DNA of 64,000 nt from contig JAIOYC010000001.1 of NCBI GenBank assembly GCA_021741325.1, positions 3,906-67,905 on the forward strand, read 5' to 3'. A program made the position numbers and the translations under genes. The notes under the pieces were generated by a model, which was not told the origin of the DNA, made no database searches, and saw only the letters and a list, made by a program, of their open reading frames with translations. Positions 2,710 through 32,765 of the stretch are shown here, piece by piece; position 1 is the first letter of the stretch; each line of letters opens with the position of its first letter. Source of the DNA: Alphaproteobacteria bacterium (GTDB lineage: Bacteria; Pseudomonadota; Alphaproteobacteria; Micavibrionales; Micavibrionaceae).

Positions 2710-3756
2710 ATGGCTGGAAGCGTACATGAAAAACCAATTCTTCAAACCCTGAGGGGACGGAAGACGGAGTCTATTCCCTTCTGGCTGATGCGCCAGGCGG
2801 GTCGCTATCTGCCGGAATACCGTGCAGTGCGCGCCTCCAAAAACGGATTTTTAGATATGGCGTTCGATCCGTCTTCCGCTGCTGAAATAACGATGCAGCC
2901 GGTGAGAAGGTTCCGCATGGACGGCGCGATTATTTTTTCCGATATTCTCGTCATCCCCTGGGCGCTGGGACAAAATCTTGAATTTCTGGAAGGCGAAGGG
3001 CCAAGGCTTGGGGAGTTAAATCCTGGAAAACTCGAAATGCGGGATCTGGAGGAAAAGCTCTCTCCGGTGTTCGAAGCGCTCTCCCGTACGCGGGATTGCC
3101 TCGCGGCGGAAGGTTACGATCGTACGGCCCTGATCGGATTTGCGGGCGCGCCCTGGACGGTGGTGACCTACATGGTCGAAGGCGGGGGAAGCAAGGATTT
3201 TGCGAAGGTCAAAACCATGGCCTACGCGCAGCCGGAAAATTTTGCGCGGCTGATGGATATTCTGGTGGAATCGACCGCGATGTATCTTATCGCGCAGGTT
3301 CGGGCCGGCGCGGAAATTCTTCAGATTTTCGACACATGGGCCGGAGCCTTGGACCCGCACGGGTTCCAGCATCAGGTGATCGAGCCCACGCGAAAAATCG
3401 TGGAGCGCGTGAAAGCGGCGCACCCGGACATTCCCATCATCGGTTTTCCGCGCGGAGCCGCGATGCATTATCCGGCTTACGTGGCGCAGACGGGTGTGGA
3501 CGCCGTGGGTCTGGACGGGCTGGTCTGCACGAAATGGGCGGCGGCGCATCTGCAGACGAAATGTCCGGTGCAGGGCAATCTTGATCCCATGCGGCTTCTG
3601 GCCGGTGGGGAAGGACTGGAAAAAGCAGCGCGGAAGATTCTGCGGGATTTTTCGGGCGGGGCACATATTTTCAATCTCGGCCACGGCATTCACAAGGACA
3701 CGCCCCCGGCGCATGTGGAGCGTCTGGCGGAGATCATCCGGGAGTTTCCGGCATGA
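2710..3756 (+). CDS. hemE: uroporphyrinogen decarboxylase
   Basis: IPFWLMRQAGRYLPEYRAVR signature, 348 aa, 4-nt overlap with the following hemH. Confidence 0.95.
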   Translation: MAGSVHEKPILQTLRGRKTESIPFWLMRQAGRYLPEYRAVRASKNGFLDMAFDPSSAAEITMQPVRRFRMDGAIIFSDILVIPWALGQNLEFLEGEGPRLGELNPGKLEMRDLEEKLSPVFEALSRTRDCLAAEGYDRTALIGFAGAPWTVVTYMVEGGGSKDFAKVKTMAYAQPENFARLMDILVESTAMYLIAQVRAGAEILQIFDTWAGALDPHGFQHQVIEPTRKIVERVKAAHPDIPIIGFPRGAAMHYPAYVAQTGVDAVGLDGLVCTKWAAAHLQTKCPVQGNLDPMRLLAGGEGLEKAARKILRDFSGGAHIFNLGHGIHKDTPPAHVERLAEIIREFPA

Positions 3757-4811
3757 GTGAAAAAATCGCCGTGGTGCTGTTCAATCTGGGCGGCCCGGAT
3801 TCGAGGGAGGCTATTCGTCCGTTCCTGATGAATTTCTTCATGGATAAAAACATCATCCGTCTGCCCCTGATTTTTCGTTTTCTTCTGGCGTGGCTTATCA
3901 GCCGACGGCGCAGCCGCAAGGAAGCCGGCGTGAGCTATGGAGAGCTGGGCGGGAAATCGCCTCTGCTGGAGAACACACAGGCACAGGCGAGCGCGCTGGA
4001 AGACAGGCTCAATCTTTCGGGACAAACATTCAAGGTTTTCGTCTCCATGCGCTATTGGCATCCCATGGCGAAGGAAACCCTCCGCGCCGTAGGGGATTGG
4101 GAGGCCGATAAAATTATCCTCCTGCCGCTCTACCCTCAATTTTCAACCACGACGACAAAATCATCTTTGGGCGTATGGGCCAGAGAAATCCGGAAGTCGG
4201 GATTTAAAAAACCGACCAGTATGATTTGCTGCTATCCGGACAATGAGGGTTTTATCCGCGCCTCGGCGGAGAATATTCGGGCGCAGTATGACCGGGCGGT
4301 GAAAGACGGACATGCGGCGCCCCGGCTTTTGCTCTCCGCGCACGGTCTGCCGGAAAGCGTCATCACCGACGGCGATCCGTATCAGTGGCAATGCGAATAC
4401 ACGGCGGCGGCTATCATACAAAAGCTCGGTATTGAGGATCTGGACTGGATTGTTTGTTACCAGAGCCGCGTCGGGCCGATGAAATGGATCGGGCCTTCTA
4501 CGGAAGATGAAATCCGGCGCGCGGCGACGGAGGGGAAGGCCGTGGTGATCTATCCCCATGCCTTCACGCAGGAGCATGTGGAAACGCTGGTGGAGCTGGA
4601 CATCGAATATAAACATTTGGCGCAGGAGATCGGCATTCCGGGCTATTACCGTGCGCAGACTGCGGGGACGCATCCGGATTTTATCGAGGGGCTGGCCGGG
4701 ATGGTGCGGGATCATCTGGAACAGGGCGGTATTTCTGCCGAAAAAACGAAACGCCTCTGTCCGGGACAGTTCAAGCGGTGCTGCCAGGAAGATGGCCGGA
4801 TGGATTTTTAA
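3753..4811 (+). CDS. hemH: ferrochelatase
   Basis: VVLFNLGGPDS N-terminus and LLSAHGLPES motif, 352 aa, ATGA overlap with hemE. Confidence 0.93.
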   Translation: MSEKIAVVLFNLGGPDSREAIRPFLMNFFMDKNIIRLPLIFRFLLAWLISRRRSRKEAGVSYGELGGKSPLLENTQAQASALEDRLNLSGQTFKVFVSMRYWHPMAKETLRAVGDWEADKIILLPLYPQFSTTTTKSSLGVWAREIRKSGFKKPTSMICCYPDNEGFIRASAENIRAQYDRAVKDGHAAPRLLLSAHGLPESVITDGDPYQWQCEYTAAAIIQKLGIEDLDWIVCYQSRVGPMKWIGPSTEDEIRRAATEGKAVVIYPHAFTQEHVETLVELDIEYKHLAQEIGIPGYYRAQTAGTHPDFIEGLAGMVRDHLEQGGISAEKTKRLCPGQFKRCCQEDGRMDF

Positions 4812-4877
4812 GATTTGACGAAAACACAGAAGTGTAATAGGCATGGGGTCGTGATTTTCTAATCCGAGGATGCGCTG

Positions 4878-5423
4878 ATGAGTAAAAACATAGAGGAAAT
4901 GGCCCAGAGCGGGCTTGCTTATCTTCTGAACTTAAAGAAGAAAAGATATAAAGAAGAGATCAATATTTACCAAGGTGAAGGCGAGGAAAGATTAAATTTC
5001 GGCGGGACGAGAAAAACCCTGGAGTTGGAAAGCGCGATGGCCCGGGGGGCCGGAAAATCGTCCTACTGGGATCTGAAGGAGCCTTTTGTGGATGCGGCTT
5101 TGAGCACAAAGCGTCCCGGCACGAAAGTCGCCTGCGAATATCTTCAAAAAGATATGGCCTGGAAGCATTGGTTTGAAGAAATTCAAGAATCCCTTCAGGC
5201 GGAGGTCGGCGTACCGACCGCGCCGGACGTCAAGGAGGCTTTCCGGCAGATGTGCCTGAAGGCGCGGCAAGGGGGCATATCCACAAGCCACAGTTACAAT
5301 GCGCACGAGGGGACGTTCATGCACTGGATTTATCTCGATGGGGACAAGCATGAAAATATGCCGCCGGATGAAAATCTAAGAACCGGTACGCCCTATCCTT
5401 TTTTTCCCGGCTGGCAGGTTTAA
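4878..5423 (+). CDS. orphan protein, paralog A of a three-member tandem family
   Basis: GAGGA SD about 9 nt upstream. The N-terminal IEEMAQSGLAYL and C-terminal VKEAFRQMCLKARQGGISTSHSY blocks are shared with the ORFs at 5516 and 5956. Confidence 0.7.
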   Translation: MSKNIEEMAQSGLAYLLNLKKKRYKEEINIYQGEGEERLNFGGTRKTLELESAMARGAGKSSYWDLKEPFVDAALSTKRPGTKVACEYLQKDMAWKHWFEEIQESLQAEVGVPTAPDVKEAFRQMCLKARQGGISTSHSYNAHEGTFMHWIYLDGDKHENMPPDENLRTGTPYPFFPGWQV

Positions 5424-5451
5424 TTTTTTGATAGGATCGCAAGAATAAAAT

Positions 5452-5480
5452 TTGACAGAAGATTTTTCCTTCAATAAAAA
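5452..5480 (+). promoter_or_regulatory. sigma70-like promoter of paralog B (TTGACA-N17-TAAAAA)
   Basis: aaaTTGACAgaagatttttccttcaaTAAAAAgg. It has nearly the same architecture and flanks as the element at 5891-5919. Confidence 0.5.
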
Positions 5481-5515
5481 GGATCATTCGTATTCCCTAA
5501 AAGAAAGAGATGCCT

Positions 5516-5824
5516 ATGAGCAGCATAGAGGAGATGTCCCAGCGGGGACTGGATTTTTTAAGAAATGTTCCGGCTCCTTCGGAAGATGGAAAAAGCGCGT
5601 TTTGGGCGGATTTTGAACAAAAGTCAGATGGAAGCATACGCACTAGCGCTGATGCATCCATGTTAGGAAATGCAATGCGGGGCGAGGATCAAAGCACTCT
5701 GCCCGAGGACTTTAAAAAAGCCGTGGACAAGGTTTATCACGAATCCAGAAAACTCGGTTTCTGGACGTCATACTCGCCCGACGGCCCATGGAACCGGGGC
5801 ATCACAAATTGCAACGTCTATTGA
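5516..5824 (+). CDS. orphan protein, paralog B of the tandem family (alternative ATG at 5510)
   Basis: MSSIEEMSQRGLDFL.. and FKKAVDKVYHESRKLGFWTSYS align with paralogs A and C. The DNA start atgagcag matches paralog C. Confidence 0.7.
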   Translation: MSSIEEMSQRGLDFLRNVPAPSEDGKSAFWADFEQKSDGSIRTSADASMLGNAMRGEDQSTLPEDFKKAVDKVYHESRKLGFWTSYSPDGPWNRGITNCNVY

Positions 5825-5890
5825 TGAAATAATAGTACACCGGCTCCTTTTTCTCCGGCGTGGTGGATGCATATTTTTCTATATATCAAA

Positions 5891-5919
5891 TTGACAGAAA
5901 AGGTATTTTTCAATAGATA
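5891..5919 (+). promoter_or_regulatory. sigma70-like promoter of paralog C (TTGACA-N17-TAGATA)
   Basis: caaaTTGACAgaaaaggtatttttcaaTAGATAagg. It shares AAATTGACAGAA...TTTT.CAATA.A.AAGG with the element at 5452-5480. Confidence 0.5.
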
Positions 5920-5955
5920 AGGCGTTAAAATATCCCATGGAAGAGGAGTAAATTC

Positions 5956-6324
5956 ATGAGCAGAGGCGATAAAATGTTCCAGCGGGGCGTTGATTTTCTT
6001 GAAAAGGCAGTCAACCCGGAACCCCAGAGCCCCGCAGAGGCCTTCTATGCCGGCTTTACGCGGAATATGCAGGAGAAGGGCTCCCCTCTTGTTCCGTCGG
6101 ATTCGCATGCCAATACGTTGAAGGGAGCCATGCGCGCCAAATTCGAAAGATTGCCGCCGCAAGATTTTCGGGAGGCTTTTAAACAAATCTGTGTTAAAGC
6201 CAGAATGATCGGCCTTAAAACGATGCACTCATACGACGAACGGAACGAAGTCTGGGATCATGCGATTCTCAATCTTTCTCGCAGCGAAAATGTCCCCTCG
6301 GACCGGATTCCGGGGCTCGATTGA
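5956..6324 (+). CDS. orphan protein, paralog C of the tandem family
   Basis: AGGAG SD 8 nt upstream. MFQRGVDFL and FREAFKQICVKARMIGLKTMHSY blocks are shared with paralogs A and B. Confidence 0.7.
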   Translation: MSRGDKMFQRGVDFLEKAVNPEPQSPAEAFYAGFTRNMQEKGSPLVPSDSHANTLKGAMRAKFERLPPQDFREAFKQICVKARMIGLKTMHSYDERNEVWDHAILNLSRSENVPSDRIPGLD

Positions 6325-6338
6325 CGGGCAGCGATCAT

Positions 6339-6785
6339 ATGCCTGAATTCCTCCTCCTCCACTACGACTGGCTCCGGGCTCTGCACATCATCGCGGTGAT
6401 GTCGTGGATGGCCGGGATGCTGTATTTGCCCCGCCTGTTCGTCTATCACGCCGGAGCGGCGAAGGGCTCGGAAAGCTCGGAGACCTTCAAGATCATGGGG
6501 CGCAGGCTCCTGAAGATCATCATGAATCGGGCCATGGCGGGCGCCTGGGTGTTCGGGGGGCTGATGCTGTGGGCCAATCCCGCCCTTCTTCAGGCGCCGT
6601 GGATGCACGGAAAGCTCGCGGCGGTGCTGATCATGACGGGGCTTCATCACGGGTTGGGCATGTACGTAAAGAAATTCGCGCGGGACGCCAACACACGTAC
6701 ACAAAAATTCTATAGAATTCTCAATGAGATACCGGCTTTTTTGATGGCGGTGATTGTTATTCTGGCCGTGGCGGAGCCTTTTTAG
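6339..6785 (+). CDS. hemJ: protoporphyrinogen IX oxidase, HemJ type (UPF0093/CopD-like membrane protein)
   Basis: LRALHIIAVMSWMAGMLYLPRLFVYH and GKLAAVLIMTGLHH blocks, about 4 TM segments, about 148 aa. It sits in heme-gene context directly upstream of rho. Confidence 0.85.
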   Translation: MPEFLLLHYDWLRALHIIAVMSWMAGMLYLPRLFVYHAGAAKGSESSETFKIMGRRLLKIIMNRAMAGAWVFGGLMLWANPALLQAPWMHGKLAAVLIMTGLHHGLGMYVKKFARDANTRTQKFYRILNEIPAFLMAVIVILAVAEPF

Positions 6786-7032: not shown

Positions 7033-8289
7033 ATGAATTTACAGGAACTCAAAATGCGCTCGCCCGCGGAACTTCTCGCTTTTGCGGAGGAGCTGGGCAT
7101 AGAGAACTGCAGCACGATGCGCAAGCAGGAGATGATGTTCGCCATTCTCAAGCAGCTGGCCGAACAGGACGTGCCCATCTCCGGCGTGGGCGTGCTGGAA
7201 GTGCTTCAGGACGGGTTTGGATTTTTGCGCTCGCCCGAGGAGAATTACCTGCCCGGTCCCGACGATATTTATATCTCACCCTCGCAGGTGCGGCGTTTCG
7301 GGCTGCGCACGGGGGACATCGTGGAAGGCGGTATTCGCGCACCGAAGGATTCCGAGCGCTATTTCGCGCTTTTGAAGGTCAACACCATCAGCAGCGAAGT
7401 GCCTGAGAAGATCCGCCACAGGATCAATTTCGACAATTTGACGCCGCTTTACCCGGACCGGAAAATCAAGCTGGAGATCGAAGATCCCACAAAGAAAATG
7501 TATCTCCAGCGGGTCATCGAGCTGACCTCGCCGCTCGGTTTCGGCCAGCGCGCGCTCATCGTCGCGCCGCCGCGCACCGGAAAGACCGTGATGCTGCAGC
7601 AGATCGCCCATTCGATCGCCGCCAACCATCCGGAAGCGTATCTGATCGTTCTGCTCATCGACGAGCGGCCCGAGGAGGTGACAGACATGGCGCGCTCCGT
7701 CAGGGGCGAAGTGATTTCCTCCACCTTCGACGAGCCGGCCTCCCGGCACGTACAGGTGGCCGAGATGGTCATGGAAAAAGCCAAGCGTCTGGTCGAACAA
7801 AAGCGCGACGTCATTATCCTGCTGGATTCCATCACGCGTCTTGCGCGCGCCTACAACACGGTCGTTCCCTCCTCCGGGAAGGTTCTGACGGGCGGTGTGG
7901 ACGCCAACGCTCTCCAGCGGCCCAAGCGTTTCTTCGGCGCGGCCCGGAACATCGAACAGGGCGGCTCGCTCACGATCATCGCCACGGCGCTGATCGACAC
8001 GGGCTCGCGGATGGACGAGGTGATCTTCGAGGAATTCAAGGGCACCGGGAATTCGGAAATCGTTCTGGACCGCAAGATCGCGGACAAGCGCGTCTTCCCG
8101 GCCATCGATATCCAGAAATCCGGCACGCGGAAGGAAGAGCTGCTGGTCAGCAAGGACGTCCTGCAGAAAATGTGGGTCCTGCGCCGGATTCTCAATCCGA
8201 TGGGCACCGTGGACGCGGTGGAGTTCCTGCTCGACAAGATGAAGACCTCGAAGAACAACGACGATTTCTTCACGGGAATGAATCAGTAG
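7033..8289 (+). CDS. rho: transcription termination factor Rho
   Basis: 418 aa, Walker [29 protein letters not shown]-terminal RNA-binding domain. Confidence 0.97.
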
Positions 8290-8458: not shown

Positions 8459-9451
8459 ATGCGCAGAAGAGATTTTTTAAAGGCTGCTGGCATAAGCACG
8501 GCTATCCCTCGTGCTTTGTTTGCGCAGACCCAGGAACCCCCGGGACAAGGGCTTCTCAACAAAGACCATAAGGAGCTGATCAGACGCTCGCGCCTGTACC
8601 AAATGGAGATGGATTTTTACGGGACGGAGAACAACACCGATCCATCGAGATACCTAACCAAAATGGATATTTCGGGGATCGATACTCAAAATCTGGGGCG
8701 TCTTCGTACGGATGGCCTATATCTGGCGGATCTGGATCTGAGCGGTTCGAATTTTAGCCGGTCCGTGTTCTATAGACCCAATCTTGGGTCTACAAATTTT
8801 TCAGGAGCGAATTTCTCGGGCGCATCCAAATACAACGAGGGATCTTTCTTTGGATATGGAGATGCGTCGCGCGCCAATTTCTCAAATTCCTCAATGGTTT
8901 ATACGTATTTCTCTGACATGGACCTTTTTGAGGCAGATTTTAAAAACGCCAACCTGCTGAAATCCGTTTTCTCCGGAAAAAGGACCAAGTTCAGTGGCGT
9001 AAGGCTGGAAGGCGCGAATTTACAAGAAGCACAATTTACAAACATCGACTTGTCGGGAGAGGATTTCTCAAAAGCGGGATCTCTTAATCGGGCAGATTTC
9101 AGCGAGTGCGATTTGGGTAACACAACATTCAACTTGAACGAAGACCTTCTCTTCACCAAATTCTACGAACCTAAAAATTTCGACAGCGCGCGGTTTTTAT
9201 ATAAAAACAGAATTGTTCACGGGGTGATAGTATCAGACCCCGCGTATCCGTCCTGCCTGACTTATGAACCCAAACCGGATGACTGGAATGAGAGCCATTC
9301 AGGTCAAATTCACGCGGCGGATATCATGCCGAAACTTGCGCTCAGTGTGTATAATAAGGAAAATTATTGGCTGGGCACGGAGCACCCTCTTTATAAAGAT
9401 GTCCTGAAATTGAAAGAAAAAGGGCTGCCCCCGGCTCTGGATAAGCATTAA
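8459..9451 (+). CDS. pentapeptide-repeat protein with a twin-arginine (Tat) signal peptide
   Basis: MRRRDFLKAAGISTAIPRALFAQ is an RRxFLK Tat motif. A central run of A(D/N)LxX-type pentapeptides follows (LSGSNFSRSVFYRPNLGSTNFSGANFSGAS.., ANLLKSVFSG.., ANLQEAQFTNIDLSGEDFS..). The region is AT-richer than its neighbours. Confidence 0.8.
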   Translation: MRRRDFLKAAGISTAIPRALFAQTQEPPGQGLLNKDHKELIRRSRLYQMEMDFYGTENNTDPSRYLTKMDISGIDTQNLGRLRTDGLYLADLDLSGSNFSRSVFYRPNLGSTNFSGANFSGASKYNEGSFFGYGDASRANFSNSSMVYTYFSDMDLFEADFKNANLLKSVFSGKRTKFSGVRLEGANLQEAQFTNIDLSGEDFSKAGSLNRADFSECDLGNTTFNLNEDLLFTKFYEPKNFDSARFLYKNRIVHGVIVSDPAYPSCLTYEPKPDDWNESHSGQIHAADIMPKLALSVYNKENYWLGTEHPLYKDVLKLKEKGLPPALDKH

Positions 9452-29293: not shown

Positions 29294-29408
29294 GCACCTC
29301 AGTTTTTATTAAGAAAATATATAAAGATCTTTATACAGAATTTATTGACAGATAGTTCCATTGTATATAGGGTTTTGCGCTATATAGAAATTCTATTTGG
29401 GGACAAAA

Positions 29409-29840
29409 ATGTTTGAAAGCAAACATTATGAAACAGGCTGGTTAAAGCCGATGACGGATTCAGACAAGAAGAACAACGAATCCTTCTTGAAGCAACACCG
29501 TCTTTCACAAAAATTTGTCGTATCAACCAGAATTGGCCACGCGAAAACAGATGAAGCCGTCTTAAACAGCGGTGACGACGTTTTTCCTATGTCTTCTTCT
29601 TGTAATCTGAAAGCCGAAAGATTGATGGCCAAAAATACAGAACTGAATAGACTGTCTCGGGCTAAAAACAGTCTTAAAATTTCTTTTACAACATTCGCCT
29701 GTGGCGGAGATGAAAAGGTTGAACGGGTCTACGATATCGCCTCCGTGGACAATATAGAGGCTCAAATCGCAACGCTCCGAGGAAACGAGACAATTATAAA
29801 ACAGAATGCCGCCATCCTCAAAAAGCTCGAAAATCGCTAG
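29409..29840 (+). CDS. orphan hypothetical protein in an AT-rich islet
   Basis: ATG at 29409 (the track used TTG at 29397). Upstream TTGACA (29345-29350)-N17-TAGGGT. No recognisable domain. Confidence 0.55.
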   Translation: MFESKHYETGWLKPMTDSDKKNNESFLKQHRLSQKFVVSTRIGHAKTDEAVLNSGDDVFPMSSSCNLKAERLMAKNTELNRLSRAKNSLKISFTTFACGGDEKVERVYDIASVDNIEAQIATLRGNETIIKQNAAILKKLENR

Positions 29841-30713: not shown

Positions 30714-30988
30714 GTCTTCTTTCTCCACCTCTTTGAAGTGTGCGAGAGCGACCTGGAAACAGTCCTCTTCACTTTTCCTGGTCGAAGGGTCATTAAATAT
30801 TTTCAATCTCAATAATATAAAGTTTAATCGGATGTGATCTGAAAGGCACAAAACCACTCCTCTTACCTATTAATTTCTTATGTTAATGTAGTGTTTACCA
30901 TCTGCCCCTTACAGTATATCCATAAAACAAAGATTATACGCGCAACAGTTGCGTAGATCAGAAAAAACGGTTGTACGGGGAAGACATC

Positions 30989-31990
30989 ATGGCTCTGGGA
31001 GACAAAGAGCATAGCCGCCTTACAGGAGACGCCACCGGGCTGACCGGCGGCCTGCGCGGGTCTTTTGCGGCGGCCAACAAGTTGCCGTCCTCCGATCTGC
31101 CCACCTTTGAGGAGCTGACCGAGAAACGCCGCAACGATTACGCGCTGAACGGACTTCTCAACGGAGAGGGCGAAGCGGATTTCGCGGGCCTGATGGGCAG
31201 GTACGGCGTTGCGGAGAAGAGCTTTCACGGTGTGACCGAACACAAGCGGAAAGAAGAGGATTTCTACCGGATTTTGATACGGCAGGCTATACTGGAAAGC
31301 CTGCAACGGCTGAACGAGCACATCCAATGGTTGACGGATCAGATTGAGCTTCTGCGCCTGGATATCGCTGAAATCGATGCGGACATGGCCAAGAATACAG
31401 GCCGGATCGATGAAATCAAACTCAGGCGCGCCGCGGGGGAAGACGCCCTGTCCTATTTCAACAAATATGGCGTTCTGGAACGCAACCCGGACGGAACACT
31501 CAAGAACCCCCGCGCGCAAGCTCTTTTGGATGATTACAAGGCCCGGACCGGGAAAGAGCCGGAAGACGATTATATCGCGGCCTATTTTATACAAGAACAG
31601 CTTAAATTCGATAAAGCCGAAGAAGATGGTTGCCGGAAGGACAACGACCATCTCGAAGAGAAACGCACGGAAAAGGAAATCCTGCTGGAACAGATGGAAC
31701 GGGATAAAGACCGGTTTCTCCGGGAGCGGGACCGTATTCTGAAGATAGAGGATCCCGCAGAGCAGGCAAAGCAGATGGAAGCACTGAACACCCAATTCAG
31801 CCAAGCCGTTCTTGAAGCTGCACAAGACTCTTTGAACAGTGAAGACAAAGACCTAAAACAGGCTCTAGATGAAAAACCTCATAAAAACGAAACAATTGAA
31901 ACAAGCGCGGACGAGCTGTGGGCCCTGGAGGGTGAATCAAAATCAAATACTCTTACATCCACAAATCCCCTGAAACCGATGGGCCCTTGA
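30989..31990 (+). CDS. orphan, highly charged coiled-coil protein
   Basis: The ATG at 30989 lies inside the track ORF (30971). E/K/D/L-rich heptad-like sequence (..LQRLNEHIQWLTDQIELLRLDIAEIDADMAK..). The antisense ORF 30878-31825 looks like an F/L-rich shadow frame. Confidence 0.65.
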   Translation: MALGDKEHSRLTGDATGLTGGLRGSFAAANKLPSSDLPTFEELTEKRRNDYALNGLLNGEGEADFAGLMGRYGVAEKSFHGVTEHKRKEEDFYRILIRQAILESLQRLNEHIQWLTDQIELLRLDIAEIDADMAKNTGRIDEIKLRRAAGEDALSYFNKYGVLERNPDGTLKNPRAQALLDDYKARTGKEPEDDYIAAYFIQEQLKFDKAEEDGCRKDNDHLEEKRTEKEILLEQMERDKDRFLRERDRILKIEDPAEQAKQMEALNTQFSQAVLEAAQDSLNSEDKDLKQALDEKPHKNETIETSADELWALEGESKSNTLTSTNPLKPMGP

Positions 31991-31995
31991 AGAAA

Positions 31996-32577
31996 TTACT
32001 GTATTTCGAGTGACGTCAAAGTCACGCCCGGCGTGGAGGATTTGGGTAGATGCTCCCTATTTTCTTTTCCAAAGCTGCCATCTTCTATGTTTTGAATGGC
32101 TTTAATAGGTGTATATGAACCTTGGAGCTTATGATCTTCTACAATATAGAAAATTCCACCATCTTGTCTGATAAGGCTCGTGCTTATATAAGGTCCTTCA
32201 TAGCCTCCTGAAACCAAAGCCCCTGTCGGATCCTTGAATATAACCGCTGGAATTCCCTCTTTTCCCAGTTTTTTTGCAATTAACCGCCCAACACGCTCGG
32301 CTGGCAATTTCTCAAAATCTTCCTTCCCCTCTATGATATAAATAACAGCCACCTTATTTTTAGCCGCGTAATCCTTCGCGTCCGTAATTTTACCTGTGAG
32401 AACAGGAATGTTCTCGGCCGGCACCCCGATTGAGTCTGGGGATGATGCCGCCTGGAAAGGAAGGGAAACGGAGGAGGGGGAAGACGCAGGAGACGTCTTC
32501 GCCTCCAATGTGGTGGCTGAGAGAGTTAAGGCGACAGCCAACGCCGCCGCCGCCGTAAAGGCGCGCTTGATAGACAT
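31996..32577 (-). CDS. orphan secreted protein (Sec signal peptide)
   Basis: The internal ATG at 32577 gives MSIKRAFTAAAALAVALTLSATTLEA. It is convergent with the coiled-coil gene, with a 5-nt gap. Confidence 0.65.
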   Translation of the reverse strand: MSIKRAFTAAAALAVALTLSATTLEAKTSPASSPSSVSLPFQAASSPDSIGVPAENIPVLTGKITDAKDYAAKNKVAVIYIIEGKEDFEKLPAERVGRLIAKKLGKEGIPAVIFKDPTGALVSGGYEGPYISTSLIRQDGGIFYIVEDHKLQGSYTPIKAIQNIEDGSFGKENREHLPKSSTPGVTLTSLEIQ

Positions 32578-32765
32578 GAATTTCCCTGTTCTTTTATTGT
32601 TATTTTCGCGATTTATATCACGAGATGCTTCAAAAGGCAAGCTTTTGAGTCCCGAAAGTTGCGAAAGACCGGATTTCCGGGCGCGTCGGCGCAGGGATCC
32701 ATTGATGTGAAGGAAAATCGGTATAGATTGTTCCTCAGAATACTTATACCGGATAAGGAAAAACT

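Follow-up and report, generated by a model that had tools for sequence, protein, structure and literature searches.

Three anciently duplicated genes of a lineage-restricted family occupy a variable hemH-hemJ junction in a Micavibrio-like alphaproteobacterium

In an uncultured Micavibrio-like alphaproteobacterium (NCBI GenBank assembly GCA_021741325.1), the genes hemH and hemJ are separated by three small open reading frames (ORFs) of a single protein family. We analyzed these ORFs within a 64-kb window, which is the whole stretch of 64,000 nucleotides (nt) from position 3,906 to position 67,905 of contig JAIOYC010000001.1. All coordinates below are those of the window. The gene order is hemE-hemH-[ORF1-ORF2-ORF3]-hemJ-rho, and the trio occupies the positive strand between hemH (3753 to 4811) and hemJ (ending at 6785). 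All three ORFs were present on that strand at the positions given by a first-pass annotation of the sequence, and the identities of the four flanking genes are secure. The island differs from its surroundings in composition. Its G+C content is 0.43 to 0.53, as opposed to 0.55 to 0.63 in the flanks, and the G+C content at third codon positions is 0.52 to 0.59 in ORF1 to ORF3, as opposed to 0.65 to 0.81 in the neighboring housekeeping genes. It is one of about 10 low-GC segments in the window, whose overall G+C content is 0.557. The same locus was found in an independent Logan assembly (SRR12088351, a 6.6-kb contig), which is 99.97% identical to the window.

The positive-strand frame had the best codon-usage score in each of the three ORFs. 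Two ORFs on the negative strand that overlap the trio (4992 to 5351 and 5818 to 6228) were rejected as genes, since both codon-position conservation and codon scores favored the positive frame. The start of ORF2 at ATG 5516 agrees with the N termini of the other two proteins, all of which begin with ATG-AG[CT] (Met-Ser), and ORF2 was also called as a protein of 102 amino acids (aa) in the independent assembly. Each ORF had been credited with a good Shine-Dalgarno sequence. Read from the sequence, this is true of ORF1 (GAGGA, 7 nt ahead of the ATG) and ORF3 (GAGGAG, likewise 7 nt), but ORF2 is preceded by just a purine-rich AAGAGA. The start of hemJ is either TTG 6321, which overlaps the ORF3 stop codon, or ATG 6339, which lies 14 nt past it.

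The proposed paralogy of the three proteins was borne out by significant pairwise similarity. ORF2 and ORF3 are 30% identical over 108 aa (BLASTP E value of 2e-13), and ORF1 and ORF3 are 44% identical over a 48-aa C-terminal block (E value of 3e-11). Direct similarity between ORF1 and ORF2 is found in the N-terminal block only (E value of 5e-4), and these two proteins are connected via ORF3. When compared with shuffled sequences, the three Smith-Waterman z scores were 20.8, 15.9, and 4.1. In the alignment of all three, a conserved N-terminal and a conserved C-terminal block flank a variable middle, which contains a weak G-K-S-x-[FY]-W block. Among the 13 invariant residues (in ORF3 numbering) are Q9, G11, and L15, which fall in the N-terminal block, and D70, A74, R83, G86, T89, S92, and I104, which fall in the C-terminal one.

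Codon alignments were used to evaluate the age of the copies. Nucleotide identity at codon positions 1, 2, and 3 was 0.49, 0.60, and 0.31 between ORF2 and ORF3 and 0.53, 0.62, and 0.28 between ORF1 and ORF3. The proportion of synonymous differences (pS) was about 0.95 to 1.0, as opposed to 0.41 to 0.43 for nonsynonymous differences (pN). Randomized third positions in a retained protein mean that the duplications are old, that the positive frame is coding, and that selection has been purifying. Thus, the trio consists of genuine protein-coding paralogs that arose by ancient duplication. The copies had been described as diversifying, which this result does not bear out: they are old, and the conservation of positions 1 and 2 against random third positions is the signature of purifying selection. 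The start codons of the last two copies repeat at a distance of 440 nt and their upstream regions at a distance of 439 nt, in the same register. Since the two spacings agree, the duplicated unit comprised both promoter and gene. Tandem duplication of this roughly 440-nt unit, upstream promoter-like element included, gave rise to the trio.

No relatives of the trio could be detected in any collection searched. Pfam gave no match at E values of up to 1, the sole NCBIfam match had an E value of 0.13 against a cutoff of 512 bits, the best PHROGs match (E value of 0.049) was to a family of unknown function, and PADLOC returned nothing. A word-indexed search of 5.8 billion clusters recovered the trio proteins only. 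Degenerate-pattern scans of genome, metagenome, and viral contigs produced no relatives, and a six-frame search of the window produced no further copy of the family. When all of 1.84 billion representatives were scanned by HMMER with a profile of the three sequences, the trio was joined by two repeat proteins, P0004 and P0005. P0004, a protein of 1,900 aa with a library E value of 1e-5, was rejected as spurious, its score being the sum of 10 domains of 4 bits or less each; P0005 is discussed below. Among the titles and abstracts returned by a literature search on Micavibrio genomes, nothing bore on the locus. The first-pass statement that the proteins carry no recognized domain is therefore upheld, and none of these searches placed them in a described family. 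Its further suggestion of something undescribed holds only insofar as no match to a described family was obtained, and poor sampling of the lineage accounts for part of the orphan status. The best identity of HemH to a protein of any genome was 67 to 68%, in metagenome-assembled genomes (MAGs) labeled Micavibrio or Alphaproteobacteria, and for Rho the identity was 87 to 93% with almost every relative that had a complete match. The host is a Micavibrio-like alphaproteobacterium without a close sequenced relative.

We compared the locus with 80 related loci, in which the block consists of a conserved hypothetical gene on the negative strand followed by hemE, hemH, hemJ, and rho. Seventy-two of these loci were collinear, with hemJ downstream of hemH. 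The gap between the two genes was shorter than 100 bp in 43 of the 72, 100 to 250 bp in 3, and 289 to 2,048 bp in the remaining 26. The inserts belong to many unrelated families and lie on either strand. They encode a calcineurin-like phosphoesterase (four loci), an RraB-like protein (three loci), at least two families of small membrane proteins, a 367-aa lipoprotein-like protein, and numerous singletons. The spacer between hemJ and rho was expanded in 18 of 63 loci; in the window it has the normal length of 247 bp. None of the 80 loci contained a homologue of the trio as judged by tblastn, hmmsearch, hhalign, or Smith-Waterman comparison with shuffles. These results show that hemJ directly followed hemH in the ancestral arrangement and that the trio is a lineage-specific insertion into an otherwise coherent heme block, as had been supposed. 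They also show that the hemH-hemJ junction is a recurrent variable slot, which has been filled repeatedly by unrelated genes.

In several respects the trio resembles the lineage-specific ORFan genes that populate variable slots (genomic islets). It is a low-GC insertion between syntenic core genes, it has no homologues beyond its lineage, and different cargo is found at the same junction in relatives. Unlike the usual islets, however, it is a three-paralog family old enough for synonymous saturation, its last two copies each keep a conserved promoter-like element, and it sits at an operon junction, where the gap in relatives is usually below 60 bp. Hallmarks of mobile elements were absent. The 64-kb window contained no tRNA genes, nor any Rfam family at the gathering threshold, and there were no meaningful terminal repeats. 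Inverted repeats were short and imperfect, reaching at most 14 nt across the island and at most 21 nt at 76% within 4700 to 6400. No integrase-like ORF was seen within 1 to 12 kb, as judged by inspection only and without a profile search.

The conserved promoter-like element is a block of 34 to 35 nt at 5449 to 5482, ahead of ORF2, which aligns with 5888 to 5922, ahead of ORF3. Within it, TTGACAGAA and TTCAATA are identical in the two copies (AAWTTGACAGAA and TTCAATA are identical or nearly so). In both cases TTGACA lies 64 to 65 nt ahead of the ATG. The alignment score of the two upstream regions was matched by only 5 of 2,000 shuffles, and the pattern TTGACN-N16-18-TANAWW occurred three times in the 64 kb, as opposed to 0.5 expected, with two of the three occurrences at ORF2 and ORF3. 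The first-pass observation that the same AT-rich element precedes these two genes is thus confirmed. The exact element was absent from all related loci save the second assembly of the same organism. Because the synonymous sites of ORF2 and ORF3 are saturated, the survival of the upstream block argues for a function. A private promoter had been proposed for ORF1 as well, and its TTGAC lies 63 nt ahead of the ATG, the same distance as in the other copies. However, the region upstream of ORF1 aligned with the other two no better than shuffled sequences did, so that its candidate TTGACG-N17-TAGGCA is indistinguishable from chance.

Terminator-like sites were not found in any spacer of the trio, including the one between ORF3 and hemJ, and the spacers after ORF1 and ORF2 had weak folds that were no better than those of shuffles. 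With a gap of 14 nt or an overlap, there is no room for a separate promoter between ORF3 and hemJ, which implies that hemJ is transcribed through ORF3. Judging from the sequence, ORF2 and ORF3 may each be served by a sigma-70-type promoter of their own in addition to read-through from hemE-hemH, and the ORF3 promoter would probably also feed hemJ. Such an arrangement would explain why the element was conserved while the synonymous sites were randomized.

The trio proteins are hydrophilic, with a grand average of hydropathy (GRAVY) of -0.73 to -0.81 and isoelectric points (pI) of 4.9 to 7.9. No membrane segments were found (the maximum of the 19-residue Kyte-Doolittle profile did not exceed 0.26), and no hydrophobic N terminus or Sec, twin-arginine (Tat), or lipoprotein signal was apparent from hydropathy, without a dedicated signal-peptide predictor, the N termini being charged and helical. 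This agrees with the first-pass annotation, which had reported neither a signal peptide nor a transmembrane segment. Both AlphaFold2 runs placed a helix at the N terminus and folded the C-terminal block into a helix followed by a beta-hairpin (residues 69 to 84 and 88 to 105 of ORF3, respectively). A Foldseek search of the models against the PDB returned nothing at an E value of 0.001 or better. The predicted architecture would comprise a conserved amphipathic N-terminal helix, a variable flexible linker, and a C-terminal module of a helix plus a beta-hairpin.

Taken as a whole, we lean toward an anciently duplicated, lineage-restricted family of soluble proteins in the variable hemH-hemJ slot, with probable promoters of their own for ORF2 and ORF3 and a possible role as adaptors, and we do so with modest confidence. 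The most likely assignment is that the three are soluble accessory proteins, presumably co-transcribed with hemJ. They may act in the cytoplasm as accessory or adaptor proteins, in which case the helix and the C-terminal module could bind a protein or nucleic acid partner and the three copies might have diverged in specificity; our confidence in both of these suggestions is low. A part in heme biosynthesis itself would not be expected. Several points weigh against this interpretation. Only one lineage represents the family, and its two assemblies (99.97% identical) show no polymorphism within the ORFs, so that the evidence for selection comes from comparison between the copies only. A generic scan for Escherichia coli-type sigma-70 promoters called none of the three upstream sites, because their -10 hexamers (TAAAAA, TAGATA, and TAGGCA) end in A and do not have the T required at position 6; TAAAAA and TAGATA would fit an alphaproteobacterial TANAW-type -10 element, as in the Caulobacter consensus. 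The AlphaFold2 models, built from an alignment of three sequences, have low confidence, with predicted local distance difference test (pLDDT) scores of 55 for ORF3 and 42 for ORF1, which leaves the domain architecture tentative. The weakest part of the explanation is the binding of partners as adaptors, which is suggested by composition and the pattern of conservation only.

Other explanations were weighed against the same data. Small heme- or porphyrin-handling factors had been among the roles proposed, and such proteins could work with HemH and HemJ, for example in substrate channeling or as a chaperone. In favor of this, the trio lies between hemH and hemJ, with which it shares a strand and probably a transcript, and a histidine in the C-terminal block (T-S/M-H-S-Y) is common to ORF1 and ORF3. 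That histidine is a tyrosine in ORF2, though, and no cysteine or histidine is invariant. The trio has a composition foreign to the operon, the family is lacking in relatives that have the same hem genes, and sister lineages carry a metallophosphoesterase, RraB-like proteins, small membrane proteins, or other unrelated genes at this junction. Because the junction holds unrelated cargo in 26 lineages, a position beside the heme genes is no evidence of a role in heme metabolism, and we regard this function as very unlikely. The host suggests another role. It clusters with Micavibrio, whose members are known to be epibiotic predators, and the proteins might be accessory to predation or competition, either as nonclassically exported effectors or as immunity or chaperone partners, with the N-terminal helix as an export or docking signal. 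Effector and immunity families are often lineage specific, tandemly duplicated, and compositionally atypical, as this one is, and the N-terminal block is the only part common to all three copies. Yet there are no export signals or membrane segments, no toxin, immunity, or defense model matched (PADLOC and PHROGs included), no secretion-system genes adjoin the locus, the N-terminal motif occurs in no further protein of the window or the global library, and a predatory lifestyle is only presumed for the host MAG. The effector or anti-defense role raised at first pass thus found no backing, and we consider it unlikely. The ORFs might also not be the functional units at all, with the conserved promoter and 5' segment instead yielding attenuators or short RNAs. 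All three N-terminal coding blocks do contain a terminator-like hairpin and T run (4901 to 4915, 5536 to 5549, and 5973 to 5991), about 50 to 70 nt past each promoter-like element, and identical codons are somewhat enriched among the first 15 (5 of 7, as opposed to 7 of 21 elsewhere). The enrichment is not significant at such counts, however, the folding energies of the leaders are ordinary (z scores of -0.4 to +1.0 relative to shuffles), Rfam gave no match, and the similarity spans whole proteins with the codon-position signature of coding sequence. We therefore rejected this reading, which is extremely improbable.

P0005, the only nonself, nontrivial match among 1.84 billion proteins, points toward phage homing endonucleases. 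If the match were real, the C-terminal block would be a domesticated nucleic acid-binding repeat from the free-standing homing-endonuclease-like proteins of large phages, and the trio would be small DNA- or RNA-binding regulators. We find this quite unlikely, although several observations speak for it. P0005 combines four repeats of about 53 aa in its N-terminal part with a C-terminal PHROG domain of the homing-endonuclease type. In hhalign, the family aligned with 17 repeat units at a probability of 90% and a score of 37 over 43 columns (with the pattern P-x-DF-x-x-x-F...R-x-x-G...Y...W-x-H), whereas column-shuffled controls scored 10.0 ± 1.8 (maximum of 15.3) and a reversed alignment scored 12.9. 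On phage-like contigs, the relatives of P0005 are flanked by a primase-like gene and a topoisomerase gene, and this interval is the classic setting of free-standing homing endonucleases. The best sequence match in the PDB is likewise a homing endonuclease, I-TevI, and the low GC content of the island suggests a foreign origin. On the other hand, the HMMER E value of P0005 (1.4e-4) sums four copies of a weak match, the best domain of which scored 12.7 bits with a library-wide independent E value (i-E-value) of 1.5e4, and close relatives of P0005 scored far worse. Since the search from which the target was chosen covered about 2.4e11 residues, for which a rough extreme-value extrapolation gives on the order of 1 to 10 such scores by chance, homology is an unproven lead. 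The trio proteins are acidic to neutral rather than basic, and the repeat module itself comes without a Pfam model or a known function. True homology between the C-terminal block and the P0005 repeat is, in our estimate, doubtful.

The likeness to the P0005 repeat extends over about 43 residues and follows the pattern P-x-D/E-F-x-x-x-F-x-x-x-x-x-x-A/V-R-K-x-G ... Y ... W-x-H. The first half of the repeat (T-x-DDFNKFI) is missing from the trio. A protein of the P0005 type would be expected to carry a tandem array, usually with a PD-(D/E)XK-type endonuclease domain, whereas the trio has one block per protein and no nuclease domain; the trio is chromosomal in an alphaproteobacterium, whereas the relatives of P0005 are on phage-like contigs. 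Membership of the trio in the GIY-YIG superfamily was rejected. Residues 54 to 107 of ORF3 align with residues 7 to 63 of the I-TevI GIY-YIG domain (PDB 1LN0), including its D-F-x-x-x-[FW]-K helix, but the E value is 0.53, the conserved GIY/YIG tyrosines are absent, an invariant alanine of the family occupies the position of the catalytic Arg27, and the would-be beta1-beta2 region is unconserved and predicted to be helical or disordered. The phage proteins form a family of their own (P0005 to P0015; loci L082 to L085), with tandem repeats of about 53 aa that follow the consensus W-S-H-L-N-T-x-DDFNKFI...P-x-DF...Y-x-[KR]-A-x-[KR]-L-G-x-L-x-x-L-I-Y. The C-terminal homing-endonuclease domain is present in some of its members and not in others.

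The features of the locus are listed in Table 1.

Table 1. Coordinates of genes and promoter-like elements at the hemE-rho locus of the window
Feature	Position	Strand	Remarks
hemE, uroporphyrinogen decarboxylase	2710..3756	+	PF01208 URO-D, E value of 2e-113; opens the conserved block; same position in 80 of 80 related loci
hemH, ferrochelatase	3753..4811	+	TIGR00109, E value of 3e-86; left flank of the insertion
Weak promoter-like TTGACG-N17-TAGGCA of ORF1	4815..4843	+	Read from the sequence
ORF1, 181 aa	4878..5423	+	Two internal insertions and a C-terminal extension; best codon score in the positive frame
Conserved promoter-like element of ORF2	5449..5482	+	TTGACA at 5452-5457, 17-nt spacer, TAAAAA at 5475-5480
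ORF2, 102 aa	5516..5824	+	Shortest member; alternative ATG at 5510; pI of 4.9, GRAVY of -0.81
Conserved promoter-like element of ORF3	5888..5922	+	TTGACA at 5891-5896, 17-nt spacer, TAGATA at 5914-5919
ORF3, 122 aa	5956..6324	+	Member linking ORF1 and ORF2
hemJ, protoporphyrinogen oxidase	6321..6785	+	TIGR00701, E value of 4e-45, alignment from residue 15 of the 154-aa ORF; right flank of the insertion
rho	7033..8289	+	Rho_N, Rho_RNA_bind, and ATP-synt_ab domains; closes the conserved block

Some neighboring genes and related loci deserve mention in their own right. Over the 6.6 kb shared by the window and the Logan assembly there are just two differences, at 6499 and 6529. Both sites fall within hemJ, at a distance of 30 nt from each other, and might reflect either polymorphism between strains or noise in the assemblies. 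Divergent from hemE, a 248-aa hypothetical protein without a Pfam or NCBIfam match is encoded on the negative strand (1747 to 2493). It is kept in the same position, at 28 to 58% identity, in almost every one of the 80 Micavibrio-like loci and is therefore a clade-wide, syntenic, and uncharacterized family. Just 3' of rho lies a gene for a pentapeptide-repeat protein of 330 aa (8459 to 9451, positive strand; G+C content of about 0.45). Its N terminus has a weak twin-arginine likeness (TAT_signal, E value of 0.066, below threshold), and it had no tblastn match in the 80 loci, which makes it another lineage-specific gene beside the block. Further low-GC segments between housekeeping genes were found at 29397 to 29840, 30971 to 31990, and 31996 to 32640. 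By eye, their neighbors include an ornithine/aspartate carbamoyltransferase-like ORF and a miaA-like ORF, and their own ORFs encode proteins of 147 aa, 339 aa (charged and coiled-coil-like), and 214 aa (with a signal-like N terminus), which appear lineage specific by eye only. Among the related loci, a 137-aa ORF in the slot of a near relative (L003) looked similar to the trio by eye and was rejected by hmmsearch, hhalign, and Smith-Waterman comparison with shuffles. One of the closest relatives (L018, 1378 to 1918) has a 542-bp hemH-hemJ spacer with a normal G+C content of 0.55 and no ORF longer than 77 aa, which could be a decayed gene or a noncoding element.

As a lineage-specific gene cluster, the trio is real but of a fairly ordinary kind. 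It adds one lineage-restricted family without a known function, from a sparsely sampled and probably predatory clade of alphaproteobacteria. It also calls for caution: a place between hemH and hemJ seems to hint at a function, but the comparison with relatives shows that unrelated genes of many kinds land at this junction. The hemH-hemJ and hemJ-rho junctions are both recurrent variable slots in the Micavibrio-like relatives sampled and could serve to harvest lineage-specific genes of these predators. The link to homing endonucleases, if true, would be a case of domestication of a phage DNA-binding module. A more specific history, which we regard as a long shot, is that such a module was captured, lost its nuclease, and was triplicated under its own promoters, or that a fold was born de novo in the hemH-hemJ spacer, with one promoter in either case co-opted for the essential hemJ. 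The upstream element, kept while the synonymous sites of the adjoining genes were randomized, offers a clean natural example of regulatory constraint, and the inserted promoter may have become responsible for an essential downstream gene, hemJ.

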